From a virus: 64,000 bases of DNA. A model generated the notes under the pieces. It did not search any database, had not been told where the DNA came from, and saw only the letters and a program-made list of their open reading frames with translations. Below are positions 2,518 to 62,921 of the stretch, piece by piece. The translations under genes and the position numbers were made by a program. The first letter of the stretch is position 1; each line of letters opens with the position of its first letter. The stretch spans positions 143,192 to 207,191 of IMG/VR virus record IMGVR_UViG_3300050821_002957. One strand, given 5' to 3'.

Positions 2518-3606
2518 TTACTTTTTCTTAAACAGATCGCCGTATTCGTCACCGGAAGTCTGTTGCTGTGCAGGCACGTACATCGGTTTGCCACTCGTCA
2601 TGCTCATCGTCAAAGCCGCAGGCGTAGCTTCGATCTGACGAGTAGCGTCGGAAATGATGTTTGCCTTGCTTACCTGATTGCCGTTGCCGCCTAACTGTAC
2701 ACCGGCATTCTTATTCTGCCATGCGTCCAACATCTGCATAGCCTTCTCAGTATCCACGCCGTCCTGTAGATCGGACTGCTTGAGAATGTCTTTCGTCACG
2801 TCGAGGAAGTTTTCGACTTCACCCATCGCAGCGGTATAGTCTTGTTCCAATTTGACAGTGGCTTCATCCCACATGTCTTTTTCAGGAAGACCCTTGAGAA
2901 TCGCCATTGCACCACGAACCACGCCACGGTCGGCCTTGGCTTCTTCACGCTCTTCTTCACGGAACTTGATTTCGTTGCCCATGTCGATGATCGTGTCGCT
3001 GCACAGATGATAGTAGCGATCCATGATAGTGATCAACAAAGTCAGGCGCTTCATTTCTTCGATGTAGCGAGCCTTCTTCGCTTCCAGGCGGGTGACCTGT
3101 TTCTTGTTGATGTTCATCCCGCTTTGATCGTTGTTTTTCACGGCCTGATTCAAAAGACCGTAAGTATTTTCCAGTTCTGCATCATTGGCTTGCTGACGAC
3201 GTTGAACCTTGACACGCTGCCCTTTCAGAGCATCGAGAGATTCCTTCATCTCATTCAGCTTGCCTTCCATGCGTTCCTTGTAAGTCTTCAGGATACCGAT
3301 AGGGTCGATGCTAATGAATTGACTGGTAAGCCAGCGCATCATCGAGCGATACAAGTAGAAGACCATATTTCGCAGTTGCCCATCGACGACAAGCCAGCCG
3401 AGCAGCGCAATACCGATGCCAACCACAAAAAGATGGAAAATGTTGTCCACTGCATTGACCATGTAATCGCCAATGGAGCTTCCGAAAAAGTAAAGAATCA
3501 ATGCGACCGCTGCGACTGGAATACCGTAGCTAAAAGCCTTGGTTAAACCATCTCCCGGTCGAGTTCCTTTAGTTACTGTTGAAAGTGTGTTAAGTTCGCC
3601 TGCCAT
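2518..3606 (-). CDS. membrane protein with two TM helices and a long coiled-coil domain
   Basis: Hydrophobic helices (IPVAAVALILYFFG, IFHLFVVGIGIALLGWLVV) followed by K/E-rich heptad-like sequence. Stop lies 16 nt before the start of the OmpA gene. Confidence 0.65.
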   Translation of the reverse strand: MAGELNTLSTVTKGTRPGDGLTKAFSYGIPVAAVALILYFFGSSIGDYMVNAVDNIFHLFVVGIGIALLGWLVVDGQLRNMVFYLYRSMMRWLTSQFISIDPIGILKTYKERMEGKLNEMKESLDALKGQRVKVQRRQQANDAELENTYGLLNQAVKNNDQSGMNINKKQVTRLEAKKARYIEEMKRLTLLITIMDRYYHLCSDTIIDMGNEIKFREEEREEAKADRGVVRGAMAILKGLPEKDMWDEATVKLEQDYTAAMGEVENFLDVTKDILKQSDLQDGVDTEKAMQMLDAWQNKNAGVQLGGNGNQVSKANIISDATRQIEATPAALTMSMTSGKPMYVPAQQQTSGDEYGDLFKKK

Positions 3607-11783: not shown

Positions 11784-12311
11784 ATGATTGTAGGCGTGTC
11801 AATCCCTAAATTATCGAACAAGCAAATTACTCTCAATGCAGTCCTCCCTCTGAAAGGCGTAACATTCACCGACCGAGAAGCAATGGATGATGCATTTTTA
11901 CCGTACTTCGCACCACTCCAAAATTTCTTCCACGGCGAAGGACATCGTGATCTTGTTGATCGTCTGATTCGTTGTGGATGGATCACTGTAGATCGAGTCA
12001 AAGGCACATTTACCGTGGTGCTTGAAGAAGGCATCCAAGTTGCAATGCAGGCGACCGACCCAACACAAGGCCCGACTCCTCGCACAGTAGAAATGTCATT
12101 TCTGGAAGAACATCAGCCGGTGACGCAACTCACTTTCGTTCAGATGCAAATGATCGATGAAGTCGGGAAGCATACATCATATGATCCAGGCCCCAATGAA
12201 CCGAAGCGAATCGCCATTCTTGAAACTCTTATCGATGCAGGTTTGGTTCAAATTTCATATTCATTGACTCCATTGGGCATTGCAGAATTCAAAAAACTCG
12301 GATCTATTTAA
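11784..12311 (+). CDS. hypothetical protein
   Basis: First ATG of the 11715 GTG-initiated frame; 175 aa. Confidence 0.45.
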   Translation: MIVGVSIPKLSNKQITLNAVLPLKGVTFTDREAMDDAFLPYFAPLQNFFHGEGHRDLVDRLIRCGWITVDRVKGTFTVVLEEGIQVAMQATDPTQGPTPRTVEMSFLEEHQPVTQLTFVQMQMIDEVGKHTSYDPGPNEPKRIAILETLIDAGLVQISYSLTPLGIAEFKKLGSI

Positions 12312-13363
12312 TGCGTCTGAAAAAAGCATTTTCGTTCGACGACGTGATGCTCGTGCCACGTCTTAGTCACATGAACACCAGGAGCGATGCCGATCTCTCT
12401 ACGACTGTCGCTAGTGTACCGTTAAAAATTCCAATCATCGCCGCCAACATGTCTTCCGTGTGTGAAGCAGATATGGCTATTGCTTTGGCACAAATCGGTG
12501 GTCTTGGAATTATTCATCGCATGTGCTCTGTAGATGAACAAGCAGCAATGGTCAGACATGTTCGTGGAAGTGCTGGAATTGTACGTCCTCTTGAACCACC
12601 TGCTGTACGAGTTGGGTTTTCCATAGGCGTTGGTGAAGATTGGCGTGACCGTATGGATGCTTGCCGACATCATGCTGATATTGTATGCTTAGACATTGCA
12701 CATGCTCATCATCAGCGGGTCATTGAACTGCTCGACAAATATTTTGGAATTTACAAAGACTATCCGATCATCATTGGACAGGTAAGTACGGCTGCTGCGG
12801 TTCGTGATCTTCTCCGGTCGAATCATGTAGCAAAACATTTACCGACGATTGCGTTCAAGACTTCTATTGGCGGCGGCTCGCTTTGTACGACTAGAATCAA
12901 AACGGGATTTGGTGTGCCGACACTTCAGTCAATCATGGACATTCACCAAGTATTTCCTGAAATTAACATCATTGGTGACGGCGGCATCAAAGAATCTGGT
13001 GACATCGTAAAGTCGCTGGCCGCAGGCGCAAGTGCTGTGATGCTTGGCAGTCTTCTTGCCGGAACCGATGAAGCCCCTGGTAGAATCGTAAAGAGTAAAG
13101 ACATCATGTTCAAGGTCTATCGTGGTTCGGCGTCGTTCGGTGATAAAGCTCTACGTGGAGAAAAGACACGAAACGTCGAAGGCGAGGAAGCTCTTGTTCC
13201 CTACAAAGGTAGTGTTCATCGTGTCGTCGAAAATTTACTCGATGGAATTCGTAGTGGATTTTCTTACGGTGGTGCTGCTACAATAAATGAATTACAGGAC
13301 GGAATCGAATTCATTGAAATTTCAGCCCACGGTTACCAAGAAAGCCTACCGCATGGTAAGTGA
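12311..13363 (+). CDS. guaC: IMPDH/GMP reductase family enzyme without CBS insert (GuaC-like)
   Basis: FDDVMLVP start, GGLGIIHR, catalytic-Cys loop [34 protein letters not shown]; 350 aa. Confidence 0.8.
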
Positions 13364-27060: not shown

Positions 27061-28227
27061 ATGAAACTCATCTCAAAACTCACAGCAATTCTCGCCCTGT
27101 TTACAGCAGCGGCATTCGCACAACAGACGTATCCATTCACTCTCTCTCCAAATGGTGGTGTTTCGGCTACTCTGAACAAGTACACATCTCCTAGCATCGT
27201 TCAAATTCCGACGCCCGTAGTCGTATCTCTGGCAAGTGGTGTTGTCGGCAATCACGTCGTCAGTGTCAACATGCCGCCGACTGTCGATGTCAACGGAAAC
27301 ATCAATACAGCGATGTTCAGCTTTACAATTACCAACGCTGATGGTTCCTATAACGGATCACAAGGTTTGGTTCTTGGATCAGGTGGCCCTACATCAGTCT
27401 ATTTGAATGTCAACGTTGCTCTTCTACCGGCTACCTCGGGTCAACCTCTTGGTATTCCAATGTACGTCACGGATGCTTCGTCGGGATTGACATCAGCAAT
27501 CTTTTTCTACATCACCAATGTGGATGGTCGCACTTACGTCTACCCAGCGTCGAATGTTCGGGCACTCCCACACGTTGCAAGTGGTGTAGGTTGGCAGACA
27601 ATCGTAGAGTTCACAAATCAGAATTCTTCAAACACTCAGGTTCGTGTTGACTTCTCTGATCAATCTGGAAATCCTTTGGCGCTGCACTTAGCTGACGGTC
27701 GCCAAGCATCTTCCATTTACGAAGACATCAATGCTCATGGAAATGCAAGTATCACTATCGCCGATTCAGCCGCAACCTCGACGATCATTGCAACCGCTTT
27801 GGTCACTCCAACGATTGGTTTTCCAGTTGGCGTTACTGAAATTTTCAATACGACAAACGTTCCGCATTCGGCTGGTGTTGCGGCACAGCTTATCAATACC
27901 GATAGTTTGACATTCTTTTATGACACAACCAACGGCAATGCAATTGGTCTGGCTCTTCTCAATTCGTTGAACTATGCCGAACCGTTGACATTGACCTACT
28001 ACGATCAGTTCGGAAATCAACTGGCACAGACTACAGAGACATTGTGCGCCGGATGCCAGATCGCTCGTACACTCACCGCAGCAGTCGTTCCTGCTATTCA
28101 AGGTAAGACTGGCACGATCACAGCATCCTTCCCGGCTGGTTTTTCGGCAATGACTGGAATTGCTTTCCGTTTTGATTCTAATTTCTTCTTCATTCCGATT
28201 CTTCCTATCACCAACACAATTCAGTAA
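27061..28227 (+). CDS. secreted T/S/N-rich protein (signal peptide)
   Basis: MKLISKLTAILALFTAAAFAQQ signal sequence; low-complexity body. Confidence 0.65.
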   Translation: MKLISKLTAILALFTAAAFAQQTYPFTLSPNGGVSATLNKYTSPSIVQIPTPVVVSLASGVVGNHVVSVNMPPTVDVNGNINTAMFSFTITNADGSYNGSQGLVLGSGGPTSVYLNVNVALLPATSGQPLGIPMYVTDASSGLTSAIFFYITNVDGRTYVYPASNVRALPHVASGVGWQTIVEFTNQNSSNTQVRVDFSDQSGNPLALHLADGRQASSIYEDINAHGNASITIADSAATSTIIATALVTPTIGFPVGVTEIFNTTNVPHSAGVAAQLINTDSLTFFYDTTNGNAIGLALLNSLNYAEPLTLTYYDQFGNQLAQTTETLCAGCQIARTLTAAVVPAIQGKTGTITASFPAGFSAMTGIAFRFDSNFFFIPILPITNTIQ

Positions 28228-28680: not shown

Positions 28681-29076
28681 ATGCCTATCACCGATCTTTG
28701 GCTCGACGATGATCCAAGAAGAAAACTTCCCATCTGTGGAATTAGCTGGACATGGGTGCGTACCGCCGATGAAGCCATACTAGCTCTCCAGACTGGCACT
28801 GTAGAATTTGCCTCGCTCGATCATGATCTGGCTGACGAACATTACGTCAAGTTTTTTGAAGCTGAAGAAAATGGCACAGAACTAGACACATCCGACTGCA
28901 AAGAACGAACCGGATATGACGTTCTCCTGTGGATGCGAGAGAACAATGTCTGGCCCTCTGAAGGTGTCCGAATCCACACAATGAATACCGTCAGAAAACC
29001 CATTATGTTGGCAATGGTCTACGAGCATTATGGGCGCACTTTTCAATATCAATACGCCGGGACGCACAATGTCTAA
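28681..29076 (+). CDS. receiver (REC)-like domain protein (cyclic-phosphate-processing receiver type)
   Basis: LWLDDDP...SLDHDL...IHTMN pattern resembling CheY-like fold variants found in phages. Confidence 0.35.
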   Translation: MPITDLWLDDDPRRKLPICGISWTWVRTADEAILALQTGTVEFASLDHDLADEHYVKFFEAEENGTELDTSDCKERTGYDVLLWMRENNVWPSEGVRIHTMNTVRKPIMLAMVYEHYGRTFQYQYAGTHNV

Positions 29077-29108: not shown

Positions 29109-29696
29109 ATGGGTTCTGAAAAAATGGTAAGAAAAATCGGTCTCGCCGGAAAAAGCGGAAGCGGAAAAGATGTGGTGGCCGACTATTTAGGAGACCGCTA
29201 CAGCTACAAGAAAATTGCTGTTGCCGATGCGATCCGTAATGAAGTAGCTGACTTTTTTGATCATGCATTAGGATCGTGGTTTACCCACATTCCCGGATTC
29301 GTCACTGTCATCAAAGCATTCAAAGGCATGGTCTGGGAAAAACCTACACACTCAGCCATGCGTGTTCTGTTACAGTGGTGGGGTACAGAATATCGTCGTT
29401 CACAAGATCCTGATTACTGGACCAAAAAACTAGCTGCTCGTCTTGACAATAATGAATGGATAGTTGTATCTGATGTTCGTACACCCGAAGAAATGCGTGT
29501 AATTCGTGAAGCTGGTGGCGAAGTTTGGTTTGTATCTCGTCCTGGTGTTGCGCCGGTCGGAATTCCGAATCATTACACCGAAGTCGCCTTAGAGGGTGCA
29601 ACGTTCGATCAAACAATTTTGAATGACGGAACCTTAGAAGATTTGTTCCAACTTGTTGATTGGAAAGCAGATAGTTTCTGTAATTGCAAGTCCTAG
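29109..29696 (+). CDS. deoxynucleoside monophosphate kinase (T4 gene 1-like)
   Basis: P-loop GLAGKSGSGKD. C-terminal VVSDVRTPEEMRVIREAGGEVWFVSRPG...HYTE...ILNDGTLEDLF mirrors the T4 dNMP kinase segment DTRQDHE...VIHVVRPG...THITE...ITNDGSLEELF. Confidence 0.75.
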   Translation: MGSEKMVRKIGLAGKSGSGKDVVADYLGDRYSYKKIAVADAIRNEVADFFDHALGSWFTHIPGFVTVIKAFKGMVWEKPTHSAMRVLLQWWGTEYRRSQDPDYWTKKLAARLDNNEWIVVSDVRTPEEMRVIREAGGEVWFVSRPGVAPVGIPNHYTEVALEGATFDQTILNDGTLEDLFQLVDWKADSFCNCKS

Positions 29697-29766
29697 TACT
29701 TTAGTCCAATTGATGTATCTCTTGGGGTATGCTAGAGTGGTTTCCAGTGTGGAGACACTCTTTTCA

Positions 29767-30441
29767 ATGAAGACTATCAAACTGTTTTTCGCAACTATTT
29801 TTCTTGCCTTGGCTTCTAATGCCGTTGCAAGCTCTGTAACCATCGACTTCACTGCGCTACCCGGTCAGACCGCTGGTGGTGAGTACGTCGGCTTCTCACA
29901 GGCGACGATCATCACGCCGACTCAGACCTTCACCAATTTCGATCTGATCTGTGACGATTTCGAGCATACGACCAACATGCCAAGCGGCCCGTTCACTTAC
30001 GATGTATCGACGCTGCCTACGTTGTCGAACGTTCGTTGGACGCAATCACCGGAACTAATGGACTATGAATTGGCGGCAATCATCGTCTACACTTTCAACG
30101 GACTTGGTTCTGGTCAGAGTGCAGCCGCAGGAGCTTATAACTTTGCTTTGTGGGACCTGTTCGATCCGTCTGCTCCGACCTTTACGGGATCGGCGGCAGT
30201 ATTGAGTGCAGCGCAGACTCAGTACAATCTGGGCGCAAGCAATGCCGCAAACATTCATGCGTACAATCAGATTCAAATCTTCACTCCGGTGGGCGATTCT
30301 GCCAGCAACCAGGAGTTCTTGGGACTCTCTGGTACGCCGATTGGTGGGCCGCAGACACCTGAGCCTACCTCGATGCTTTTGTTGGGGTCTGGTCTGGTGT
30401 TCTTCGGCGTGATCGGTCGCAAGCGTCTCGCCAAACAGTAA
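29767..30441 (+). CDS. secreted protein with C-terminal PEP-CTERM sorting signal
   Basis: Signal peptide MKTIKLFFATIFLALASNAVA. C-terminus PEPTSMLLLGSGLVFFGVIGRKRLAKQ (PEP motif, TM helix, basic tail). Confidence 0.6.
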   Translation: MKTIKLFFATIFLALASNAVASSVTIDFTALPGQTAGGEYVGFSQATIITPTQTFTNFDLICDDFEHTTNMPSGPFTYDVSTLPTLSNVRWTQSPELMDYELAAIIVYTFNGLGSGQSAAAGAYNFALWDLFDPSAPTFTGSAAVLSAAQTQYNLGASNAANIHAYNQIQIFTPVGDSASNQEFLGLSGTPIGGPQTPEPTSMLLLGSGLVFFGVIGRKRLAKQ

Positions 30442-30454
30442 TTGGTGTGATATA

Positions 30455-31051
30455 ATGGCGAATGTGATGACCAAAGAAGAGCTTGACCGACGCATTAAAG
30501 AGCGAGCGCCTCATAGTGAAGCAGTCCGTGAAGGCATGGAGCTTGTCGAGCGAGCACGCACATTCGCCATTAAAAATCACGGTGACCAAAAGTATGACAC
30601 CGAACCCTATTCAGTGCATCTTGACGCCGTAGAGAACGTTCTAATCGAATTTGACCACATTTCCTCAGTCTTACGTGCGGCAGCGTGGCTTCATGATCTT
30701 GTCGAAGACACGAATGTTTCCCAGGCCGAAATCGACATCGAATTTCCTGGCTATGTTGCATTGATCGTTGGTGCTGTTACTTCAGAACCAGGGAAAAATC
30801 GTCGTGAACGAAACATTAAGACGTATCCAAAGATCGCACAGTACCCCGAAGCAATCATTCTCAAATTGGCCGACCGCATTGCAAACGTCCGCAACTGCAT
30901 CGCCACTCAAAGCGATTTGTTGAACATGTACCGCAAAGAGTATCCTGCCTTTCGTCTTGCGTTGAAAAGCGATAATCCCGACGTAAAACGGATGTGGTGG
31001 TATCTTGATTTCCTAATGAGTTACAATGACGACAGCAAACAAAGCCAATAG
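30455..31051 (+). CDS. HD-domain (p)ppGpp hydrolase of the SpoT/Mesh1 small-alarmone-hydrolase type
   Basis: NHGDQKYDTEPYSVHLDAV, WLHDLVEDT, ADRIANVRN. Confidence 0.7.
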   Translation: MANVMTKEELDRRIKERAPHSEAVREGMELVERARTFAIKNHGDQKYDTEPYSVHLDAVENVLIEFDHISSVLRAAAWLHDLVEDTNVSQAEIDIEFPGYVALIVGAVTSEPGKNRRERNIKTYPKIAQYPEAIILKLADRIANVRNCIATQSDLLNMYRKEYPAFRLALKSDNPDVKRMWWYLDFLMSYNDDSKQSQ

Positions 31052-31328
31052 AATAATCTTTCTTGCACGTACCAGCGAAACACGAACACGTCAAGCCATG
31101 ATCGATGCCAAGATCACATTGGCAGGCGTGGAGGCAATGTATGATGCTTGGGTTCGTGAGTATAACAGTGATCCTGACAACTTCGAGCCGGGACCGGGAT
31201 TTCATCGACCCAATCCGTACAATGTCGAAAATGCACAAGAACAAGTAAAGCGAGCAGAAGAAGCCTATAACGAAGCACGAGAGACACTGGAATTTGCAAC
31301 TGATGAATTTGTTCGCCGCCTTGTCTGA
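31026..31328 (+). CDS. hypothetical protein
   Basis: 100-aa ORF. Confidence 0.4.
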   Translation: MTTANKANRIIFLARTSETRTRQAMIDAKITLAGVEAMYDAWVREYNSDPDNFEPGPGFHRPNPYNVENAQEQVKRAEEAYNEARETLEFATDEFVRRLV

Positions 31329-31749
31329 CGAAGAAGAGCCTCCGGTTACACGTCTAGTCAACATCCGAAAGAAAAAAGATAGCATTTGGTACACCTGTGA
31401 TGTTAGAATAGATCGAGGTAGCTATTGGGGAAATCCTTTCAGTCATCTTCGAGCGAGTGCCGCTAAGTATCTTGTGGCGACCAGGAAAGAAGCCATCGAG
31501 AGTTATCGAGACTATGTTTTATCTCGCCCGGACATGATGGCTAGATTGGGTGAACTTAAAGGAAAGACGTTAGGGTGTTGGTGTGTATCAAAACCTTGGA
31601 CCTTTGGTGATTCGCCGCCAGAGGACTATGTGTGTCATGGACAAATTCTGATACAATTGATGCATGGATCGGCGCACACTAGCAGCGATTGGAATGAAAC
31701 TGGAAGAAGGAAGACTGAAGATGGCGGCAGCGAAGAAAAAGAAGTCTGA
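31303..31749 (+). CDS. DUF4326-family protein
   Basis: WGNPF...GKTLGCWC...CHG signature; first ATG of a TTG-initiated frame. Confidence 0.55.
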   Translation: MNLFAALSDEEEPPVTRLVNIRKKKDSIWYTCDVRIDRGSYWGNPFSHLRASAAKYLVATRKEAIESYRDYVLSRPDMMARLGELKGKTLGCWCVSKPWTFGDSPPEDYVCHGQILIQLMHGSAHTSSDWNETGRRKTEDGGSEEKEV

Positions 31750-32101
31750 AGTCAAAACGGAGTCATACAACGAATTCCGAGAGCGAGTTCTGACTGTCTG
31801 TGCTCGTGAAGCGCCGGATCAAGCGATCACTGAGGTCAGCACAAATACTGTAAGAAAAACGGTTCTGTACTATACGAACCCGGCCAAAAACAGTGACAAG
31901 GTTTACATCGCCGAAATCCTTAAGAGTAAAACATCGACTTTGTACGACGTTGTTTTTCAGTACGGAAGACGGGGCGGAACTTTGAAAGATGGCTTCAAAA
32001 AACGGAGTGTCGTGTGGTCCGAAGCGTTTCATGCCTACAACAAAGTGCTCGACGAGAAATTGAAAGAAGGATATACCCAAGACATTAAGGGTGGTTTATG
32101 A
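31721..32101 (+). CDS. hypothetical protein
   Basis: ATG preceded by a GGAAGAAGGAAG RBS; 126 aa. Confidence 0.5.
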   Translation: MAAAKKKKSEVKTESYNEFRERVLTVCAREAPDQAITEVSTNTVRKTVLYYTNPAKNSDKVYIAEILKSKTSTLYDVVFQYGRRGGTLKDGFKKRSVVWSEAFHAYNKVLDEKLKEGYTQDIKGGL

Positions 32102-34319: not shown

Positions 34320-34526
34320 ATGAGATTTCTGTGTACGTTCCTTTTCTTTTTTGCAATTCTCTTGGGTGCCGAGACTCTTGCTAACAGTCACCATTTTATG
34401 GTGACCGGCACAGTACGAAATTACACAATCACAGAATTTCAACCTTCAAAGAACACACATTGTTACGTACTTGAACCTCATTACGATAGCAACTCACCAT
34501 CGATCAGTTGCGTCGTCGAGCCATAA
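34320..34526 (+). CDS. small secreted protein
   Basis: Signal-peptide-like N-terminus. Confidence 0.4.
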   Translation: MRFLCTFLFFFAILLGAETLANSHHFMVTGTVRNYTITEFQPSKNTHCYVLEPHYDSNSPSISCVVEP

Positions 34527-35089
34527 TGAAACCTCAAACACAAGAGCAATTCCATTTTTTCTATGGAGGTCCGTTCTCACAATGGGCCTTCTCGCCGTTC
34601 ACTGTCAATGGCATTTACTACAAGACCGCCGAGCATTACATGATGTGGTACAAAGACCAACTTTTCGGTGGTACACTCTCCGATGAAATTCTTGCTGTCG
34701 ATCATCCTCGTGATGCAAAGTTATTGGGCCGGAAAGTTCCAAATTTTAACATCAATGTTTGGAATGCTGTCGCCAAGCCGGGTGTCTATCGTGGCAACAT
34801 GGCGAAGTTCACACAAAATCCTCTCATGCTTCAACAGTTAATGGAGACCTATGGTTACACGTTGGTTGAAGCCTCGCCGACCGATATTGTCTGGGGAATC
34901 GGTTTGGGGGAGCATGATCCGCTGCGTCTTGACCGTTCAAATTGGCGTGGAACGAATTGGTTGGGTGATGTACTTATGGATGTTCGAGACACGTTGACGC
35001 TTGCCTATCGTTGGCATGATGATCCTTCTGAGATCGGCAATCCAACAATCATCGAAGGTGAGAATTTGATTGGATCGGTCGAGCTATGA
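34526..35089 (+). CDS. NADAR-domain protein (YbiA / DUF1768 N-glycosidase family)
   Basis: FFYGGPFSQWAFSPF, TAEHYMMWYK, GRKVPNFN, LVEASPTDIVWGIGL, WRGTNWLGDVLMDVR. Confidence 0.75.
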   Translation: MKPQTQEQFHFFYGGPFSQWAFSPFTVNGIYYKTAEHYMMWYKDQLFGGTLSDEILAVDHPRDAKLLGRKVPNFNINVWNAVAKPGVYRGNMAKFTQNPLMLQQLMETYGYTLVEASPTDIVWGIGLGEHDPLRLDRSNWRGTNWLGDVLMDVRDTLTLAYRWHDDPSEIGNPTIIEGENLIGSVEL

Positions 35090-35445
35090 CCGCAAAAATG
35101 ATATTGGAATTAGAAGACGTTTTGGACAGAAAAGAGTCTCAAGAACTGACTCGTACTTTATTGTGTCGTTTGCTGGCAAAGTACCGAGCGGCAAATTTCT
35201 TCATAAAGTATCACATCTCGTTGAATCGTACATATCCACAAATTATTTTGCAATATCCAGACAGCCGAAAAGAACGCTGGCTGTACAAAGAAAAAGGACT
35301 TGAACTGATTCCTTTTGGATTGCCAATCGTCTATAAGGTTCCTACCACAGTACGAAAGTGTGGGCAAATACATAGTTGTCGTAATGGATGTTCCCAATGC
35401 TGGGAGATCACCAAAATTGAAAAGGGGTATACCGAGGTAAGATGA
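35086..35445 (+). CDS. hypothetical protein
   Basis: 119-aa ORF. Confidence 0.45.
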   Translation: MTAKMILELEDVLDRKESQELTRTLLCRLLAKYRAANFFIKYHISLNRTYPQIILQYPDSRKERWLYKEKGLELIPFGLPIVYKVPTTVRKCGQIHSCRNGCSQCWEITKIEKGYTEVR

Positions 35446-36029
35446 TTTACTCAGGAACCGGCCATCGACTGGAAGTGTTGCGTGGGGCCGACGAAACTAT
35501 CGATCTAGAAGTTATCCACCACAAAGCTGTCAGGTATGCGAAAAGCATTCTTCCATCTTACGCCGACATCACTCAAGGTATTTCAGGAATGGCAATTGGA
35601 TGGGACACTGCCTTTGCTCTAGCTCTGCTCGATCACGGTGTCCCAGTGATCGCTGCCATTCCGTTTATTGGTCAAGAAAGCATTTGGCCGGAACATGCCA
35701 AAAAACGTTATCACGAAATTCTTGACAAGTGCGCCGAGGTCCATGTTGTCTGTGAAGGTGGTTACGCTCCGCACAAATATCATGAGCGGGACAAATGGAT
35801 GGTCGAGCGGGGTCAAAAAATGATGGCTCTATGGAACGGTCATCCAAAAGGTGGAACTGCTGCGACCGTGCGCTATGCAAAGAAGGCAGGCAAAGAAATT
35901 GTCAATGTCTGGCCGGGATGGGAAATTTTTGAAATTGGATGCCCATGCGGATGCGGAGCCGATAGCGAGTCACATTGTTGGAATGCTTCTACGTGGGATA
36001 ATGAAGGTGGTCAAACTCAAATTTTTTGA
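35442..36029 (+). CDS. SLOG-superfamily Rossmann protein (LOG/DprA/YpsA-like)
   Basis: GISGMAIGWDTAFALALLDHGVPVIAAIPF and a later GGTAATVRYA segment resemble the LOG-family PGGxGT region. Confidence 0.45.
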   Translation: MIYSGTGHRLEVLRGADETIDLEVIHHKAVRYAKSILPSYADITQGISGMAIGWDTAFALALLDHGVPVIAAIPFIGQESIWPEHAKKRYHEILDKCAEVHVVCEGGYAPHKYHERDKWMVERGQKMMALWNGHPKGGTAATVRYAKKAGKEIVNVWPGWEIFEIGCPCGCGADSESHCWNASTWDNEGGQTQIF

Positions 36030-36695: not shown

Positions 36696-36913
36696 TGTCA
36701 CAAGGCGTTTTTAGTTCTTGTGGTTTTTGTGGACTCCATCTCCCTTTGACTTTTGATGAACAAAAAGATGCCGACCGAGCATGGAAATTCAGCGGAATGA
36801 ACATCCATGAATGGCATCGCCGCAAGTTTCCAAATTACCATCCCCGGTTGACATTCAAGGTTCCGCTTGATATCATTGAGAAATGTCAAAGCCAGACAAA
36901 AAAGATTCAGTGA
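36695..36913 (+). CDS. hypothetical small protein
   Basis: 72-aa ORF. Confidence 0.4.
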   Translation: MSQGVFSSCGFCGLHLPLTFDEQKDADRAWKFSGMNIHEWHRRKFPNYHPRLTFKVPLDIIEKCQSQTKKIQ

Positions 36914-37863
36914 TCCTTACCGGGACCATTGGATCTCATAGCTACGGAACGGCCACGCCGACTTCAGATTACGACTACATGTCCGTCGTGATTGCATCGT
37001 CTGACGTGTACCTGGGTCTTGACAATTGGGGAACTGCTGGAACCAAAGACGACGTTTACGAAGATCCCGAAAAGAGTCTGGTCGAACATCGGTATTTTGA
37101 ATTGAAAAAGTTCGTTGGTATGTGCGCCGGAATGAACCCAAATGCAGTTCCGCTTTTGTGGCTGCAACCGGAGCACTACGAAACCATGTCGGCGGCTGGT
37201 AGAAAGCTCGTCCAGGCCCGAGAGATTTTTAATTCCAAAAAAGCATACGATACGTTCTCTGGTTACGCTCATGGTCAGCTTCAAAAAATGGGCGGCGTGT
37301 TCAATGATGCCGAAGAGTCGAACAAACTCTTGAAGCAAGGTCATATCAAATTTCAAGACTGGTCTGAAGACATGATCAAGCTGCTTCGGATGATTCGTGA
37401 TGGAAAGTCACCGATCCCTGAAGACGCCAAGCCTGCGGACATTTACATTTACGACGAAGGATGGTTGAACGCTCTTATTGCCTTGAAGACTCATTCCAAG
37501 GAAGAGATCAAGCGTATCAAAGACGGTCCAATCACCGGGCGCATGGGAGCGAAGCGGAAAGAGCTTCGTTCTCAATATGGTTTCGACACTAAATTTGCTT
37601 TTCATACGATTCGACTGATGAGAATGTGCGTCGAATTTCTTACGCACCCTGAAGAAGGTCTGAAGGTGTACCGCAAAGACATCGATGCTGACTTCTTGTA
37701 CTCAATCAGAACCGGCGCTGTCTCACAAGAAGACATCAAGAAGATGGCCGACGACCTGTTCGCTCAAGCCAAAGAAGCCTTGGTCACCACGTCTCTTCCA
37801 GATAAGCCTGACACCGAAGCAATTCATAACTTGACGATGGACCTGATTAGATCATCCATTTGA
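36883..37863 (+). CDS. predicted minimal nucleotidyltransferase (PF10127-like)
   Basis: LTGTIGSHSYGTATPTSDYDYMSVV (GS...D-x-D motif); 326 aa. Confidence 0.5.
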   Translation: MSKPDKKDSVILTGTIGSHSYGTATPTSDYDYMSVVIASSDVYLGLDNWGTAGTKDDVYEDPEKSLVEHRYFELKKFVGMCAGMNPNAVPLLWLQPEHYETMSAAGRKLVQAREIFNSKKAYDTFSGYAHGQLQKMGGVFNDAEESNKLLKQGHIKFQDWSEDMIKLLRMIRDGKSPIPEDAKPADIYIYDEGWLNALIALKTHSKEEIKRIKDGPITGRMGAKRKELRSQYGFDTKFAFHTIRLMRMCVEFLTHPEEGLKVYRKDIDADFLYSIRTGAVSQEDIKKMADDLFAQAKEALVTTSLPDKPDTEAIHNLTMDLIRSSI

Positions 37864-38628: not shown

Positions 38629-39117
38629 ATGAAAAATTTAATTGCATTATTTGTATTGGCATTGGGCACTGTCTTTGCACAGTCCGCAGTACCGCAGAAT
38701 GAAGTTTTTGGCAACGTAGGTCTGTCGTTCCCTCGCACGCCTGCAATCACGACCACCGTCAGCGCAACCGCAGGTTATGGTCGGACTCTGGCAAACGAAA
38801 CCTTTGGCAGCACTGAAGTGATCGGCACTTATGATTTCACTCGTGCTACCCCGAAGGGCGGCGTTCAGTCTTTCTTGGGTGGCGTGAAGCAAAACTTCAA
38901 GAGCACTCTTCCGGGCATCGTTCCATTCTTGTCGGTCCAAGTCGGTGAGGCAACATTGCTTCGTAAGACCAGCTTTGCAACCGAAGTAGCTGGCGGCGTT
39001 CGGTTCACCAAGCTGTGCCCATTGTTTGGCGTCGATCTTGGCGTCAAGGGTACGAAGGTTGATGACAAGACACCGATGTATGGTGGTGTGTTCGTCGGCC
39101 TCTCGAAGAGCTTCTAG
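38629..39117 (+). CDS. secreted beta-barrel-like outer-membrane protein
   Basis: Signal peptide MKNLIALFVLALGTVFAQS. C-terminal GVFVGLSKSF ends in Phe (OMP beta-signal). Confidence 0.5.
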   Translation: MKNLIALFVLALGTVFAQSAVPQNEVFGNVGLSFPRTPAITTTVSATAGYGRTLANETFGSTEVIGTYDFTRATPKGGVQSFLGGVKQNFKSTLPGIVPFLSVQVGEATLLRKTSFATEVAGGVRFTKLCPLFGVDLGVKGTKVDDKTPMYGGVFVGLSKSF

Positions 39118-39176: not shown

Positions 39177-39869
39177 ATGAAAACTCTGCTAACCGCCCTC
39201 GTTTTATTTGGTGTTGCTGCTTCAGCGCAGACATCGCAAGAAAAGCCGTGCCCAAATGGTGGCTACGGTCCAGATTGCATCGTTCCCGGACTATTGCAAC
39301 TTCCTTCCGAAACCACGACCACTCCTAAGTCCGATAAGATTTCTGACGGATCAACATCAAATGATCTGTTCTTCATGGTTGGCTCCGATTTCGACCGTCC
39401 TGGTTTGCTGCCTCGTGCAAATTACAATGTCGGCCTGGGTCACACTTTCTCCTTCTTGACCAATTCTCCTGTTCATTATTTCGGCGATGAAGTTACCGTT
39501 GCGTACACTTACGAAAACGGTGGACCGAAAGGTTTCTGGCATGGTCCTACAAGCACCAGCACTGAAAGCCTTGGTCTGATGAAAAACATCAGCATTCCGC
39601 ATACGAAGAAAGTTACTGTCTACACTTGGCCGCAACTCGGTCTTACATCCATTTTTACCGGAAAGCCAGCGACAATACTGGATACAAAAGTGGTTGTTGA
39701 TGGTGTTCCTCTTCCTCCCACACAAAATCGTCTGTATGCCGGTTTTGCTATTGGGGCGATCATCCACCTTCCACACAACACGTCCATTTGGATTCAAGAG
39801 AGCTACAACAAAGTCGTGACGGTGCCGTGGTACACAACGACTTCGATTGGCTATACGATCAGCTTCTAA
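39177..39869 (+). CDS. secreted beta-barrel-like outer-membrane protein
   Basis: Signal peptide MKTLLTALVLFGVAASAQT. C-terminus SIGYTISF ends in Phe. Confidence 0.5.
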   Translation: MKTLLTALVLFGVAASAQTSQEKPCPNGGYGPDCIVPGLLQLPSETTTTPKSDKISDGSTSNDLFFMVGSDFDRPGLLPRANYNVGLGHTFSFLTNSPVHYFGDEVTVAYTYENGGPKGFWHGPTSTSTESLGLMKNISIPHTKKVTVYTWPQLGLTSIFTGKPATILDTKVVVDGVPLPPTQNRLYAGFAIGAIIHLPHNTSIWIQESYNKVVTVPWYTTTSIGYTISF

Positions 39870-39989: not shown

Positions 39990-40018
39990 TTGACAGGATA
40001 CGGGTCTTGTGCTATAAA
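39990..40018 (+). promoter_or_regulatory. sigma70-type promoter TTGACA, 17 bp, TATAAA driving the tmRNA precursor
   Basis: Consensus -35, exact 17-bp spacer and near-consensus -10 lying 7 to 8 nt before the acceptor piece. Confidence 0.6.
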
Positions 40019-40025
40019 TAGAGTC

Positions 40026-40325
40026 GTAGCAGATAGTCGAAGTGAACGAAGAACGCTTCTTGGACATGGGTTCAATTCCCATCGGCTCCACCAAAATTCT
40101 GATTTTAGGCATCAGAGAACTTATGGGGCCGCCCCGGTTTCGACAGGATGAGATGTTGCGTAAGCAGGGCTACCGTGGTCCTTGTCCACGTTATCCAGAA
40201 GGAATCATAAACGCTAATGCACCTGCATTTGCTTTCGCTGCCGCTGCCTAAACAGCGCTCGAACGAAGTCGGAGAACTTTGTTAAAGAACTCCCAACAGA
40301 AGGCCGGGGCAACTCGGCCTTTTGC
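40026..40325 (+). ncRNA. ssrA: circularly permuted (two-piece) tmRNA: acceptor piece ends in CCA at 40093, coding piece starts GGGGCCG at 40125, tag frame 40213..40251, terminator 40301..40325
   Basis: T-arm GGGTTCAATTCCC. 3' acceptor strand CGGCUCC-A-CCA pairs with downstream 5' GGGGCCG, giving G3-U70 and discriminator A (alanine identity). Tag ORF ANAPAFAFAAAA + TAA. GC hairpin followed by a T-run. Confidence 0.75.
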
Positions 40326-40490
40326 TTTTTGAAAGGTTGTGTTTATGAGACGACATTTGAAAATGGTCCATCACCACGGCAAACGAGCACTAAAGTCTAA
40401 GTACGGACAGGTGTTCATCATCCTGTGGTTCGTGCCGGAAGCCATTGCACTTTTTGGTTTGATATGGGCTGCATGGCGACACCTTGTAAA

Positions 40491-40841
40491 ATGAAGTTTC
40501 TTCTGTTCATTCTCTTATTCTTCGCATCAAGCGCCTGGGCCGCAGAGAAGCCTCTTGTCGAAAAATGCTTCAAAGTCCAGTCTCTCATCAAGGCAGATCC
40601 AGAGCATTATTGGGCTACCTGGAAGAACGCCTGTCCGTACATCATTGACTCGATCTACGTAAACGTCGATTTCAAAGACAAGGCCGGAAGCATTCTTGGA
40701 CATGGAGTCTGGTCGCTACATTATGTCAAACCGGGCGAGGGCCGCTACATTCGATTCTCAACTCCATCCTTGACAAGTGACTATTTCTCTGTTATCTTAA
40801 AAGAGATTACTTTGGACGCTTTCAAAGCTCTACGGTACTAA
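40491..40841 (+). CDS. small secreted protein
   Basis: MKFLLFILLFFASSAWA signal peptide (the listed ORF starts upstream at a GTG). Confidence 0.5.
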   Translation: MKFLLFILLFFASSAWAAEKPLVEKCFKVQSLIKADPEHYWATWKNACPYIIDSIYVNVDFKDKAGSILGHGVWSLHYVKPGEGRYIRFSTPSLTSDYFSVILKEITLDAFKALRY

Positions 40842-40932: not shown

Positions 40933-41008
40933 GCCGAATTAGCTCAGTTAGCAGAGCGCCGCCCTCGTAATGCGGAGGTCATGAGTGCAACTCTCATATT
41001 CGGCTCCA
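40933..41008 (+). tRNA. tRNA-like gene, anticodon CGT (Thr), with noncanonical T-loop (TGCAACT) and 31-39 mismatch; CCA encoded
   Basis: Cloverleaf by hand: acceptor GCCGAAT/ATTCGGC, D GCTC/GAGC, anticodon loop CTCGTAA, T-stem ATGAG/CTCAT. Confidence 0.45.
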
Positions 41009-41011
41009 AAT

Positions 41012-41085
41012 GCCGCCTTATTTCAATGGTAGACTCTATCTCTGGTACAGATAGGATTTGGGTTCGATTCCCAAAGGCGGCTCCA
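41012..41085 (+). tRNA. tRNA, anticodon GGT (Thr) in the best parse (alternative parse CTG/Gln); weak D-stem; CCA encoded
   Basis: Acceptor GCCGCCT/AGGCGGC, anticodon stem TATCT/AGATA with loop CTGGTAC, T-arm TTGGG-TTCGATT-CCCAA. Confidence 0.55.
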
Positions 41086-51748: not shown

Positions 51749-52006
51749 ATGAATAACATTTTGCTGAACGATCCTGACACATTCATTCAATGGCGCAAAA
51801 CCGATGAACCCGGCGATAATCCAAAGTGGGAATCGCAGTGTGGTTATATCGAACAAACCAGCTTCGGGGATCGTCCAATATTCCAAGGATTTGTCGGCCC
51901 CAACCAAACACCCACTCAGACAAAGACCAGTCTAATTTCAATCAAACAAGAAGTCGAGCGGCTGTTTAAAAAGAATTATCAACTGACCTGGGCTTATCAA
52001 GATTAG
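51749..52006 (+). CDS. hypothetical protein
   Basis: 85-aa ORF. Confidence 0.4.
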   Translation: MNNILLNDPDTFIQWRKTDEPGDNPKWESQCGYIEQTSFGDRPIFQGFVGPNQTPTQTKTSLISIKQEVERLFKKNYQLTWAYQD

Positions 52007-55000
52007 GTCGGAATAAACATAGCGTTTTGATTGCGCTCATAAGATGTATCAGTGTTCTTTGCACGTAGGTCACCAGTATGAGTACTGTTATTGTTAGTGA
52101 TCTTTGTGGTCTGTGGTGCAATGATCTGATGTCCGGTTCCTGATTGTCCTGACGTTCTGTTCAATTCAGAATTTACCGCTGAGACTTGTGCCAATTGAAC
52201 ACCAGTGCTTTCAGGAGACAATTTCGGTGTATCAAGTCTAGGAGCAGCAGTATTTGTAGCTGTGGCAACCATTGCAGGCATTGACGTTGCTGTTGGTCGA
52301 TCTACAGGCTTTGGACTACGTGATAAAGCTGTCACCACATTCTTTTGATTAGCTACGTTCTTGATTGTATCGCCGTAACCTCTAGCCGTGGCATACTTCG
52401 CTCCCATGTTCTCAATGAACTTGTTTACATCTCCAGTCTTTTGATATTCGGCAAAGGCAGCGGCATACGGACCCTTTGGATTAGATAGGAGTTTTGCGTG
52501 AGCTATGAAACCTTCTTCCATAGTCTTGTAATCGGCAAACTCTCTCTTGACTGAAAATCTTTTTTTGCCTGACCAACCCATCTTCAAAGGAGAGCCATCC
52601 AACTCTGTTGCTGTAGCTGCTTCTTTCGGTTTTGATTTTTGAAATTGAGCGAATTCAGCGGGAGTCATGTCTTCCTGGGTCGTTCTAGTCTGACTCATCG
52701 TATCGCTTTTTGATTTGGTGACTCCAAATGCATTGTTACCAATCGAATGCTTACCCCAACCAGATTCTACGGCCCATTGTGCAATTGTTACTTGAGCCGG
52801 AACACCAGTTGCTTTTTCTGCATCCATTGCCATCTGTGCGATTTCTGGTGGAACTTCGCCCTGCTTGTACTTGATGTTTTTGTTCTGTGTTCCGCCACCT
52901 GTTCCAAGAATACCGATACCTGAACCACCAGCCGCCGTGACACCAGAAGATTGTGGCTGTGGCGTTGCAGGTGTCGGTGAGGTTGGTGAAGATGTCGGCG
53001 CAACTGTTTTCGTCTGTGTTGGCGATGTTGTCGGAGTGTGAAAGCTACGAGCAGTCTTTGCCAATTCAGGTGTAGATGAAATTGGAGTAGCAGGAGGCGG
53101 ATTCAATCCTCTACGTGGCGTTACAGTATTTTGTGTCTGTTGGGTCGGAGCAGGCGCAGCACTAGGAGCCGGTGCTGAAGTAGTTGGTGCAGGCTTGGCT
53201 GTTTCTGCTGTCTTCTTACCGCCGCCAAATGGATGTAGAATTGAATTGATCTTATCAGAAATCCAATCAATGACAGATTTGATAGCATCGGTTACTGACT
53301 GCAAGGCATCTGTCAAAATTTTGGTGTTTTGTGGGCCAATAATGTTTTCGACCATCTTCTTGATCGAATCGAAAACACTGGAGAAGGCCGTACTGATACT
53401 TGCAAACGCTTTGGTGATGGTCTCCATACCAGGGATCTTCATGATCTCTTGACCAAAGTTTTCAAATGATTTTGTGAATGCCTCGATTACCTTATCCAAT
53501 GCATCTTTGATGGTATCGAGATTGAACATCGTCAAGAACCATTTGCCAAGCGCACTGAACATTCCCAGTACACCATCTTTCAGTTCTTCTATTCCTTTGT
53601 CGAATGTCTTAGGATCAGACAAATCGGACAGACCATCGATGAACTTTGACAGTCCTTCAAAAAAGTCGCCGATGATCTCAATCATCTTGCCAAGACGTTT
53701 TGCGACAAACTCCAGGATCGGTCCCAGAACTTTGAAGATTGGTTTGGATGCCACATAGAGAGCACTCAAAATGGAACCAATTGCTTTGAAAATGCTGGCA
53801 AACGATTTTGCGCTGGTCTTTCCAAGTGTCTTTCCAATTTCTGTTTTGACACCTGCCAATCCGAGCACGAAATCAATAATTCCGAACAGACCTTCGACCA
53901 CGCCGCCTAAACCACCAGCGACCCGATCCATCATCGTCAATTTCTTTTTGTCTCCAAGATACTTTTCTGCGTGCATGAATGCCGGGATGAAATCGAAGAT
54001 AGCAGTGATTGCCATAATGACTTCGCCGACAACTGGAATGAAATCTAGGAATTCAGCCATTCGACCTGCGCCACCCAAGAGTTTTGCGCCCTTGAGCATC
54101 TCGCCGCCTTCGGCCAGGAGCTTAGTACCACCCTTTGCACCTGCTTCAGCACCTTCCCCGACTGCCTTTCCAACCTCTCCCAGACCCTTTGCGCCGTCCT
54201 CTACGGCTTCGATGCCGCTTGCCGCACCCTCAACACCCCTTCCAGCCCCAGAAGCGCCCTTGCCTCGTCCAAACCAGCGCTTGAACATGCCTCCTTCTTC
54301 AGCTTCAGCCCCACCTTTAGCAGTTTTGTTGCCGAGACCCAGCCACTTTCCAATTTTGCCGCCAAACAACCGTCCGATTCCGGCTTCAATGCCAGACATG
54401 AGACCGCCGAGCAAACCGCCCTTTTTCCCACCTGATTTTTTGGCGACATCAGCAAGCAATCCACCAGCATCGCCATCGGTTGTTTCCCGACGCTTTGCGT
54501 TCGCATCCAATTCGGATTGATCTAGTTGCTTTGCAAGCAATTTGTTGATTTCTTTTAGTTCAATCAACTGCTCTTCGTCTAATTTTGCGACTCTCGAAAG
54601 CGGACCTTCTTTGTCGCTGGTAAGAATGCTCAATTTTTTGTCTTGATCTTTTTGGACACCTTCCATGAGCTTGAGCAAACCTGCGGTATTACTTTGGCTC
54701 GCCAGTTTTTCAGGATGTAATGTCGGTTCATCCAAATCCATACGCCCGTTTTGAACAAGCTCTGGAGCCGCCGCCTTTTTCAATTGTGGTGGTGCTTCAA
54801 ATTTTTCTACGTTTGGCATCGCATGAACAGCAGCAGTCATCATTGCTTTGACTGGACTGTTGTACGGATTTTTCATGCGCTCCGCTTCTTGCTTTTCCAT
54901 ATGGGCTAAAGCAGTCGGTTTCGGATGAGATTCTTCACCAAAAATTTCCGGCCAATCTGGTGTGCCTGAAGGCTTTTTTAAACTATCTTCATGCTTCTTT

Positions 55001-62429: not shown

Positions 62430-62921
62430 ATGATCTGTAAGAAATGCCAAAATCGTATCCCTACTCGCATTGTAATCGAAGGCCGTCGCCGAAACCTTCA
62501 GCGCCGCAAGTATTGTTTAAAGTGCTCGCCATTCGGAGTCCACAACACTGGCGACCCACAAAAAATTTCTCTTCGAGGTACAGATCGAAAATGCGAAGGA
62601 TGTATCAACATGATAGAACGTCGAAGACGATATTGTTCATCATGCATAAGCCGGATGCGCCGTCACAAAAGAAAACAGGTTGGTGTAGATGTGTTGGGAG
62701 GAAAATGTATGGATTGCGGCTATAATCGATGTCTGGCTGCTCTCTCATTTCATCACCGTGATCCTTCAAAAAAGGAATTTACGATCAGTGAATTTTCGAG
62801 AACTACGATGTCTCGATTCATTGCCGAAGTAAAGAAGTGTGATTTGGTTTGTGCTACATGCCACATCGAGAGGCACTATTTGAAAGATGGAGCCGAGTGG
62901 GAGAATCGAACTCCCGAATGA
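62430..62921 (+). CDS. HNH homing endonuclease
   Basis: CGYNRCLAALSFHHRDPSKKEFTIS...CDLVCATCH. The 3' end overlaps the antisense tRNA by 34 nt. Confidence 0.7.
   Translation: MICKKCQNRIPTRIVIEGRRRNLQRRKYCLKCSPFGVHNTGDPQKISLRGTDRKCEGCINMIERRRRYCSSCISRMRRHKRKQVGVDVLGGKCMDCGYNRCLAALSFHHRDPSKKEFTISEFSRTTMSRFIAEVKKCDLVCATCHIERHYLKDGAEWENRTPE

Follow-up and report, generated by a model that had tools for sequence, protein, structure and literature searches.

A PEP-CTERM protein with a predicted thioester-domain-like fold encoded by a huge T4-like soil phage

Introduction

Thioester domains (TEDs) have been described as a feature of Gram-positive bacteria (Firmicutes and Actinobacteria) in sources from 2015, 2018, and 2026 (PMC4450167, PMC6194298). 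TED adhesins are still seen as linked to anchoring by sortase. Only one cysteine and one glutamine are universally conserved among them, and a TQxx-phi-W motif on the central helix is common, yet dispensable (PMC4450167, PMC6194298). A TED adhesin encoded by the conjugative plasmid pLS20 is needed for mating-pair formation, and its Cys is essential (PMC8092201). PEP-CTERM proteins, the substrates of exosortase (EpsH), occur in organisms with an outer membrane as well as genes for exopolysaccharide (EPS) biosynthesis, and most of them show little homology to known proteins (Haft 2006, PMC1569441). Here, we describe a gene of a viral genome at positions 29767 to 30441 of a 64,000-nucleotide (64 kb) stretch of DNA (positions 143,192 to 207,191 of the IMG/VR record IMGVR_UViG_3300050821_002957; this whole stretch is called the window below). 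Its 224-residue product carries a signal peptide, a domain predicted to adopt a TED-like fold, and a PEP-CTERM sorting domain. We propose, with a probability of roughly 55%, that it is a host-derived cargo gene of a T4-like phage of about 405 kb, the product of which would be an exosortase-sorted, TED-like covalent adhesin coating the infected cells.

Non-virion envelope proteins that change the surface of the infected cell are well known among the moron and lysogenic-conversion products of phages, such as Bor and Lom of lambda and Imm and Sp of T4, which are targeted as lipoproteins, outer-membrane proteins, or simple membrane proteins. To our knowledge, none of the phage moron surface proteins has exosortase sorting or a thioester-type domain. 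In the 30 papers mentioning both PEP-CTERM and phage, we did not find a PEP-CTERM gene reported from a tailed phage; a 2026 preprint describes a PEP-CTERM domain match in an integrative element of Dehalococcoides. No bacteriophage-encoded TED was the subject of the 10 titles listed, out of 17 papers combining both terms, and the single mention of Gram-negatives found in the search for TEDs concerns isopeptide domains.

Results

A secreted protein with a PEP-CTERM sorting domain

The complete coding sequence (29767..30441) runs on the plus strand from the ATG at 29767 to the stop codon ending at 30441 and encodes, in this order, the signal peptide, the TED-like domain, and the PEP-CTERM sorting domain; all features of the gene given below lie on the same strand. 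A GGAGA Shine-Dalgarno-like motif, read from the sequence, is located 11 nt 5' of the ATG (29751..29755). A longer form starting with TTG at 29653 was ruled out, as it overlaps the upstream deoxynucleoside monophosphate (dNMP) kinase gene, and in every orthologue the protein starts with the MK... signal peptide. The Sec-type signal peptide comprises residues 1–21 (29767..29829; MKTIK followed by LFFATIFLALASNAVA), with a predicted cleavage after A19-V20-A21. As judged by inspection and a simple heuristic, the n-region of this N-terminus (MKTIKLFFATIFLALASNAVA followed by SS) is basic and precedes a hydrophobic core of 15 residues and an A-x-A site. In the AlphaFold2 model described below, the signal peptide appears as a low-confidence N-terminal helix (residues 3–16), and signal-peptide-like N-termini were found in 132 of 146 representatives of the family. 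A lipoprotein was ruled out because no Cys is present near the signal peptide. Ser, Thr, Asn, and Gly are abundant in the protein, a trait shared with described exosortase substrates.

The original prediction described a signal peptide together with a C-terminal PEP motif, hydrophobic helix, and basic tail, and interpreted them as the signature of an exosortase substrate. Both elements are present, and the C-terminus reads ...QTPEPTSMLLLGSGLVFFGVIGRKRLAKQ, as quoted there. The sorting domain spans residues 196–224 (30352..30438) and consists of P198-E199-P200 (30358-30366), a hydrophobic helix from M203 to G217 (residues 203–217, 30373-30417), and the basic cluster R218-K219-R220...K223 (30418-30435), the protein ending at residue 224. 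The proposed check with TIGR02595 (NCBIfam) gave 20.0 bits against a cut-off of 16 over residues 197–220, and the Pfam model PF07589 gave 23.4 bits against a gathering score of 20.7. Since both curated hidden Markov models (HMMs) score above their cut-offs, the opposite outcome named in the prediction, a C-terminus with no HMM support, did not occur. Matches to the named PEP-CTERM subfamilies were far below their cut-offs. When the six-frame open reading frames (ORFs) of the window were searched with a C-terminal HMM derived from the family, this protein was the sole match (E 8e-14; next best 0.57). The tail is also a property of the family: in a set of 88 relatives collected from genomes and phages, the P, E, and P are conserved in 87, 88, and 85 sequences, respectively, and PF07589 was matched by 24 of 26 family members.

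A plain membrane anchor would leave the protein in the inner membrane, facing the periplasm, without its ever being handled by an exosortase. The short C-terminal HMMs give scores that are low in absolute terms (20–23 bits), and the window encodes no exosortase; both points speak for such an anchor. However, both models exceed the curated cut-offs, and the P-E-P motif, which is not required of a plain anchor, is nearly invariant in more than 230 relatives. In addition, the family gene lies beside exosortase genes in three bacterial genomes, as described below. We thus regard a plain anchor as very unlikely.

The predicted TED-like fold and its conserved residues

For the region of about 170 residues that separates the signal peptide from the tail, Pfam, NCBIfam, and PHROG gave no family match. 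The AlphaFold2 model obtained with a 26-sequence alignment of the family showed a mean predicted local distance difference test value of 86.2 and a predicted template modelling score of 0.78, and most 10-residue blocks in residues 21–190 reached at least 90 in the former measure. In this model, residues ~22–190 (29830..30336) form beta-barrel strands, a helical bundle, and two closing strands, and the predicted structure thus has the beta-barrel and helical bundle that make up the three-dimensional fold of TEDs. The TED structures listed for the model were CpTIE (5a0g, 10.3), BaTIE (6fwv, 10.0), Cpa (2xi9, 9.7), PnTIE (5a0n, 9.6), SfbI (5a0l, 9.4), FNE (5dcq, 9.2), SaTIE (6fx6, 8.7), and EfmTIE86 (6fwy, 7.0). 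No similar fold was found in the BFVD viral structure library (best E 0.058).

The probable counterparts of the two universal TED residues are located at the expected positions of the fold. C62, the predicted thioester Cys, lies at the end of strand 54–62 in the motif LICDDF (codons of C62-D63-D64, 29950..29958) and is the single Cys of the mature phage protein. Q182, the predicted thioester Gln, lies in the motif SNQEFL just before strand 184–187 (codons of Q182-E183, 30310..30315). The helix 114–132 carries Y124-N125-F126-A127-L128-W129 (30136..30153), the counterpart of TQxx-phi-W. Conservation was examined in the 88 relatives, whose retrieval pattern did not include C62 or Q182, and in a set of 147 sequences consisting of the window protein and 146 of the best 150 library representatives selected by HMM, namely those shorter than 400 residues and not already in alignment A1. 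C62 is conserved in 88/88 and 145/147 sequences, Q182 likewise in 88/88 and 145/147, and W129 in 88/88 and 147/147. The spacing from the Cys to the Gln is 120 residues, as compared to 129 in the TED of CpTIE and 129–153 across the Class I TEDs. No His is conserved, and a Cys-His hydrolase was rejected as unlikely for this reason.

Bacterial relatives, exosortase genes, and the probable host

A profile search with a scope of 1.84 billion found 4,908 cluster representatives matching the family at E<=1e-3, 2,273 at E<=1e-10, and 276 at E<=1e-30, where some of the weak matches may involve the tail alone. Relatives were located at 103 loci (one genome per species), 80 of which were kept. Acidobacteriota accounted for 76 of these 80, including Bryobacterales, Acidiferrales, Terriglobales, and Blastocatellia among others, while the non-Acidobacteriota loci were from two Desulfuromonadales, one Verrucomicrobiia, and two metagenome-assembled genomes (MAGs) with odd labels. 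The nearest relatives share 46% (a Terriglobia MAG) and 49% (a Bryobacteraceae MAG) identity with the phage protein. The Bryobacteraceae copy (P0006) has an ordinary chromosomal context, with glycoside hydrolase genes nearby and Wzy_C and Polysacc_synt (flippase) genes within 10 kb. The bacterial relatives thus occur mostly in Acidobacteriota, organisms with an outer membrane, and EPS genes are found in the vicinity of P0006.

The original prediction proposed that the host possesses an exosortase system and that the candidate host be checked for exosortase genes. Such genes (PF09721, E 1e-43 to 1e-73) were found 0.15–3.2 kb from the family gene at three loci of the candidate host clade, all from Bryobacterales and Acidobacteria MAGs: L020:5828-6802, L027:3806-4774, and L060:10813-11742. 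At the last locus, the genes converge with 150 bp between them, and the family copy has a variant tail (VPEAST...); this may be a dedicated exosortase-substrate pair. The adjacency at the three loci links the family with the enzyme predicted to sort it and shows that the candidate host clade possesses one.

The prediction that the PEP-CTERM protein would point to the taxonomy of the host also agrees with a second gene of the window. A gene of the inosine monophosphate dehydrogenase/GMP reductase family (12311-13363, plus strand; PF00478, E 2e-90) encodes a protein 71% identical to the product of a chromosomal gene of the Acidobacteria MAG GCA_016213775.1 (locus L094, in a bacterial context), which was the only taxonomically named match among the best 120. 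Phage-type homologues of this protein with 67–89% identity are encoded on contigs of up to 400 kb. As judged from these similarities, the phage most likely infects Acidobacteriota.

Retention of the gene in a lineage of huge phages

The window is genuine phage DNA from a deep-branching T4-like lineage of huge soil phage. It encodes a single-stranded DNA-binding protein of the T4 gp32 type (PF08804, E 2.5e-44), and other hallmarks are a gp2-type DNA end protector, a gp48-type baseplate tail-tube cap, and an RNA ligase; no major capsid, portal, or terminase gene was found within the 64 kb. An identical copy of the PEP-CTERM protein (P0001) is encoded on a contig of 405,631 bp, placing the genome above 200 kb, and the same contig carries an identical GMP-reductase-like protein, which is encoded 17 kb away. 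Close homologues of the latter are found on contigs of 370, 375, and 400 kb, and these contigs of 370–405 kb therefore appear to represent a clade of huge phages. Two core proteins are 30–41% identical to those of cultured T4-like cyanophages and a pelagiphage (best 12 matches each), and Tunturi 5, a cultured jumbo phage of Acidobacteriota, did not occur among the best 12 matches listed for either protein. The PEP-CTERM gene itself gave no match with GenBank phages at the nucleotide or protein level, nor with PHROG. From these comparisons, the lineage seems to be one without a cultured close relative.

The gene occupies a slot bounded upstream by the dNMP kinase gene (29109..29696, plus strand; phrog_139, E 1e-39; PF21448) and downstream by an HD-domain phosphohydrolase gene (30455..31051, plus strand; phrog_990, E 3e-34; PF13328). 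Orthologues occupy the same slot in L004 (P0002, 73% identity) and L003 (P0005, 53%), and the slot of a more distant relative, L091, is likewise filled with PEP-CTERM genes. The window, L003, L004, and L091 are independent assemblies from different samples (the assemblies with this arrangement are Logan SRR7093796 and SRR29078124, ENA ERZ19042466, and IMG/VR 3300048762). In amino-acid divergence (74% and 56%), the gene resembles the flanking genes (73–79%) or somewhat exceeds them, and the ratio of nonsynonymous to synonymous substitutions (dN/dS) is 0.12–0.24, with dS near saturation. These values indicate that the phage copies are under purifying selection. The PEP-CTERM protein had been presented as phage-encoded in the original prediction, and the occurrence in three further independent phage assemblies together with this selection bears that out.

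Neighbour-joining analysis placed the five phage-type copies in one clade (bootstrap 91/100), which is nested among Terriglobia/Bryobacterales sequences. The G+C content of the gene is 52%, compared to 46% on average in the window and 45–47% in the neighbours; in all three phages, the gene (52–55%) exceeds its neighbours (45–51%). The bacterial homologues have a G+C content of ~60% in genomes of ~64%. The elevation in all three phages therefore fits an old host-to-phage transfer followed by partial adjustment, and the gene was apparently acquired from Acidobacteria. The same elevation over the window and the neighbours might be taken to indicate that the gene is not truly phage-borne, being either a misassembled or misbinned bacterial fragment or a non-functional passenger. 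However, the gaps to the phage genes on both sides are just 70 and 13 nt, the same arrangement recurs in the independent assemblies, the divergence tracks that of the neighbours with the low dN/dS given above, and a raised G+C content in all three phages is expected of an old acquisition from hosts of ~60%. We consider this explanation extremely unlikely.

The slot of L091 (IMGVR_UViG_3300048762_000248, 118.6 kb), whose HD protein is 53% identical, provided further insight. Three consecutive ORFs of 255, 194, and 214 residues, each with a signal peptide and a PEP-CTERM tail, are located at L091:1791-3956 (the same region as L092:2791-4956). All three match the family-derived tail HMM, and the second passes both TIGR02595 and PF07589. 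With an hhalign probability of 98.5% (E 1.5e-15) and its Cys, Trp, and Gln aligned, the first ORF belongs to the family as a divergent member. L093, a still more distant relative, has no such ORF. From its contents across the relatives, including the three genes in L091, the slot seems to be a hotspot at which this phage lineage carries exosortase-substrate cargo.

Because three different PEP-CTERM cargo proteins share the L091 slot, the sorting tag is their common feature, and this raises the possibility that the protein serves as a decoy or as an interfering substrate. It would saturate or block the exosortase or EPS export of the host and thereby alter the surface, for example to exclude superinfection; the N-terminal domain would then need no adhesive role. 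Compared with the nearest bacterial homologues, the phages also have tails nearer to the consensus, as a precomputed PF07589 match exists for P0001–P0005 and not for P0006–P0018. On the other hand, the TED-like domain of the phages is under purifying selection and retains all key residues, a pure decoy would need no conserved domain of 170 residues, and exosortase saturation is without evidence. A decoy role is therefore unlikely.

Family members were also found on other mobile elements. The IMG/VR contigs L005, L006 (9935-10543), and L007 encode members with 40–42% identity; RecT, exonuclease, and DnaB helicase genes are near the gene in L006, and transposase and glycosyltransferase genes also occur on the IMG/VR contigs. 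Another member, P0007 (L088:167-790), is on a contig with an integrase and an N6/N4 DNA methyltransferase. The presence of members in these separate mobile backgrounds suggests that the family may have been captured by mobile elements more than once.

Evidence bearing on the TED assignment and on the adhesin

The TED assignment is based on the predicted structure, the motif, and the conservation of residues, and several observations weigh against it and against the proposed adhesin. The TED models PF08341 and PF20610 matched none of the 26 family members at E<=10, and neither the L091 ORF at 1791-2558 nor the L008 copy at E<=1; the pLS20 TED, used as a positive control, passed both models. Alignment of the family with the pLS20 TED by hhalign gave a non-significant probability of 0.3%, and the family profile had no matches among PDB sequences. 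A phmmer search of the PDB sequences with the pLS20 TED found no TED sequences, and a search for homologues of the pLS20 TED found one homologue only; a residue-level alignment to an authentic TED was not obtained. The Cys is followed by Asp-Asp rather than by a hydrophobic residue, and the Gln is followed by an invariant Glu. The local Cys motif, [ILVM]-C-D-D, is only a partial match to the published TED pattern, and acidic residues beside the Cys and Gln could imply a different chemistry. At helix position 125, which is Gln in 96, Asn in 35, and Ser in 14 of the 147 sequences, the phage copies carry Asn in place of the usual, though dispensable, Gln (PMC4450167). The proximity of Cys62 and Gln182 is predicted from the topology only. 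As for the sorting and the host, no exosortase gene was recognised in the window, which contains no ORF with more than three hydrophobic segments; having no polytopic membrane ORF, the window therefore encodes no exosortase. None was found on the IMG/VR contigs in a scan that was seeded by, and thus limited to, a pattern. The assignment of the phage to Acidobacteriota rests on the similarity of two genes. Furthermore, the N-terminal domain is closest to the Bryobacterales/Terriglobia copies, whereas the phage tail is nearer to those of Acidiferrales-type and unclassified Acidobacteriota (15–17 of 24 positions identical, versus 9–10 for Bryobacterales/Terriglobia); the two parts would thus point to different host orders.

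The same residues allow a reading in which the TED fold carries no thioester. The domain would then be a non-covalent binder, or an enzyme or metal site composed of Cys62-Asp63-Asp64, Tyr100, and Gln182-Glu183, on a protein that is still displayed through PEP-CTERM and exosortase. This agrees with the acidic and nearly invariant neighbours (D63 in 82/88 and D64 in 77/88 relatives; E183 in 88/88 relatives and 144/147 sequences), with the departure from the canonical [YFL]C-phi-zeta context and the lack of a match to any TED sequence model, and with Y100, which is invariant in the family and has no described TED counterpart. In contrast, the Cys and Gln, the universal TED residues, are invariant in the expected secondary-structure elements, and no His is conserved that could form a Cys-His dyad. 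The L091 paralogue, moreover, replaces D63, D64, and E183 (PCIT... and PQVFL) while keeping the Cys, Trp, and Gln; the acidic residues are therefore dispensable across the wider family, and the Cys and Gln are not. We judge a domain without a thioester to be possible, though doubtful. The TED-like covalent adhesin is the interpretation that we retain, and within it the formation of the thioester itself is what we infer, because the sequence models lend no support, the flanking residues deviate, and the proximity comes from topology; on balance, we slightly favour the view that Cys62 and Gln182 actually form the bond.

Genomic surroundings of the gene

The gene lies within a block of genes for nucleotide metabolism that all point the same way (dCMP deaminase, PhoH, dNMP kinase, and HD hydrolase), and this position suggests that it may be expressed early or in the middle of infection. 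A 7-bp hairpin with a T-rich run (29740-29756, plus strand) overlaps the GGAGA motif and could act in translational control or weakly terminate transcription of the dNMP kinase gene. Scans for promoters and terminators around the gene, in which this hairpin was included, gave counts not above the shuffled expectation. Two genes upstream, beyond the dNMP kinase gene, a small ORF (28681-29076, plus strand) encodes a receiver-like cREC_REC domain (PF20274).

Other products of the window may also reach the host envelope. The ORFs at 38629-39117 and 39177-39869 (both plus strand; 162 and 230 residues) have clear signal peptides and a C-terminal Phe (...GLSKSF and ...GYTISF), and neither has a Pfam match. 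Beta-barrel proteins of the outer membrane classically end in such a Phe. These two ORFs, taken with the PEP-CTERM protein, suggest that the phage sends several proteins to the envelope of its host. Signal-peptide-like N-termini without Pfam matches were also observed in the ORFs at 27061-28227 (plus strand, 388 residues) and 40464-40841 (plus strand, 125 residues); the 388-residue protein has a counterpart of 59% identity in L003 and a weak match to phrog_22177, a family of unknown function (E 4.6e-4). The OmpA-domain protein mentioned in the original prediction is encoded at 640-2502 (minus strand, ~612–620 residues) and has a hydrophobic anchor at the N-terminus and, at the C-terminus, a peptidoglycan-binding domain of the OmpA family (PF00691, E 5e-14). 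Its upstream neighbour (2518-3606, minus strand) has two N-terminal hydrophobic segments.

Downstream of the HD hydrolase gene, precomputed Pfam matches assigned DUF4326, WGR, NADAR, DprA/YpsA-like, and RlaP domains to the plus-strand regions 31294-32101, 34508-35089, 35442-36029, and 36883-37863. Such clusters of NAD/ADP-ribose- and nucleotide-related genes are typical of large phages. A permuted (two-piece) transfer-messenger RNA is encoded at 40001-40342 (plus strand; RF04321, 93.5 bits over 40032-40251), with the tag ANAPAFAFAAAA given by ARAGORN. The window contains three tRNA genes, two for tRNA-Thr (40933-41085) and one for tRNA-Cys (62888-62962, minus strand). A tape-measure-like protein of 1,430 residues (52003-56295, minus strand) has an embedded endolysin/lysozyme-type domain at residues ~1150–1350 (phrog_3513 and phrog_1535).

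Discussion

The original prediction suggested that the phage decorates the surface of its host, and the TED-like fold, which it did not recognise, provides a concrete mechanism for this idea. We expect with high confidence that the product is exported by the Sec system and that its signal peptide is removed. The C-terminal helix would then anchor the protein transiently, and the exosortase of the host would recognise the tail, cleave it at the PEP motif, and pass the product to the cell surface or the exopolysaccharide matrix; by analogy with the described PEP-CTERM proteins (Haft 2006), we hold these steps with moderate to high confidence. With moderate confidence, the exported domain of about 170 residues is predicted to fold as a compact thioester domain, in which the bond between Cys62 and Gln182 would form spontaneously. 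A nucleophile on a target molecule, typically an amine, might attack the thioester to give a covalent link, a step to which we assign moderate to low confidence. The infected cells would as a result be coated with a covalent adhesin made by the phage. The benefit to the phage is speculative: the infected cell might be held in the matrix or in flocs, or by neighbouring hosts, so that the progeny meet new hosts, or alternatively its surface might be masked or altered against superinfection.

A wider picture can be drawn tentatively, and we think that it is less probable than the adhesin itself. The family might be the first group of TED covalent adhesins outside Gram-positives: a compact class distributed across the Acidobacteriota, with exosortase and PEP-CTERM replacing sortase and LPXTG, captured by phages at least twice, and kept in a dedicated slot by a T4-like clade of ~370–405 kb to tether infected cells to the soil matrix or to neighbouring hosts. 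If true, it would reveal a new means by which a lytic phage manipulates the surface behaviour of its host and its own transmission. It would also extend covalent adhesion chemistry to abundant soil diderms and tighten the long-proposed analogy between sortase and exosortase.

Exosortase substrates are mostly without a recognisable function, and the present protein offers a cargo of ~22 kDa with a predictable and assayable activity. Huge soil phages carry and conserve substrates of the surface-sorting system of their hosts in a fixed slot, which suggests active remodelling of the infected-cell surface. PEP-CTERM cargo is a practical marker for assigning these uncultured phages to hosts, and about 2,000 or more clusters labelled hypothetical or only "PEP-CTERM" could gain a domain assignment.

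PEP-CTERM sorting, the TED fold, and phage-encoded surface proteins are each known; their combination, the diderm and exosortase setting, and the conservation in huge phages are new. Among the known systems, the Class I TEDs of the Gram-positive TIE adhesins, such as CpTIE (5a0g), SfbI (5a0l), Cpa (2xi9, 4c0z), PnTIE (5a0n), and FNE (5dcq), are the structural counterparts. The family described here has no detectable sequence similarity to them, and its domain of ~170 residues is among the smallest of the TED-like domains compared. Unlike the Class I TEDs, it has no predicted helix between strand 73–81 and helix 96–112, where alpha0 sits, and unlike the Class II TEDs, it has no beta-sandwich insert; as modelled, the domain is architecturally a minimal TED. 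The motifs are the variants IC-DD and NQ-E-FL, and no isopeptide or ester stalk domain is present. In addition, the anchor is PEP-CTERM/exosortase rather than LPXTG/sortase, and the family occurs in the diderm Acidobacteriota and their phages, in contrast to the TEDs of Gram-positives.

The exosortase (EpsH) substrates, for example the floc-associated PepA of Zoogloea (PMC1569441; NF033554), resemble the phage protein in the signal peptide and the tripartite tail, and the bacterial relatives of the latter are likewise associated with EPS genes and exosortase. The phage protein differs from them in being encoded by a lytic-type, T4-like huge phage with no exosortase in the 64 kb window, and from most PEP-CTERM proteins in that its passenger domain has an identifiable TED-like fold. 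By analogy, the pLS20 TED adhesin is probably the closest functional precedent. Both would be TEDs encoded by a mobile element and displayed on the cell that carries it, and in the case of pLS20, the adhesin promotes a cell contact that aids the spread of the element. The pLS20 adhesin has a Class II TED and CnaB stalks, comprises 767 residues in RefSeq (753 in GenBank), and is anchored to the wall of a Gram-positive host. The protein described here, in contrast, is borne by a phage instead of a plasmid, and the two sequences are unrelated.

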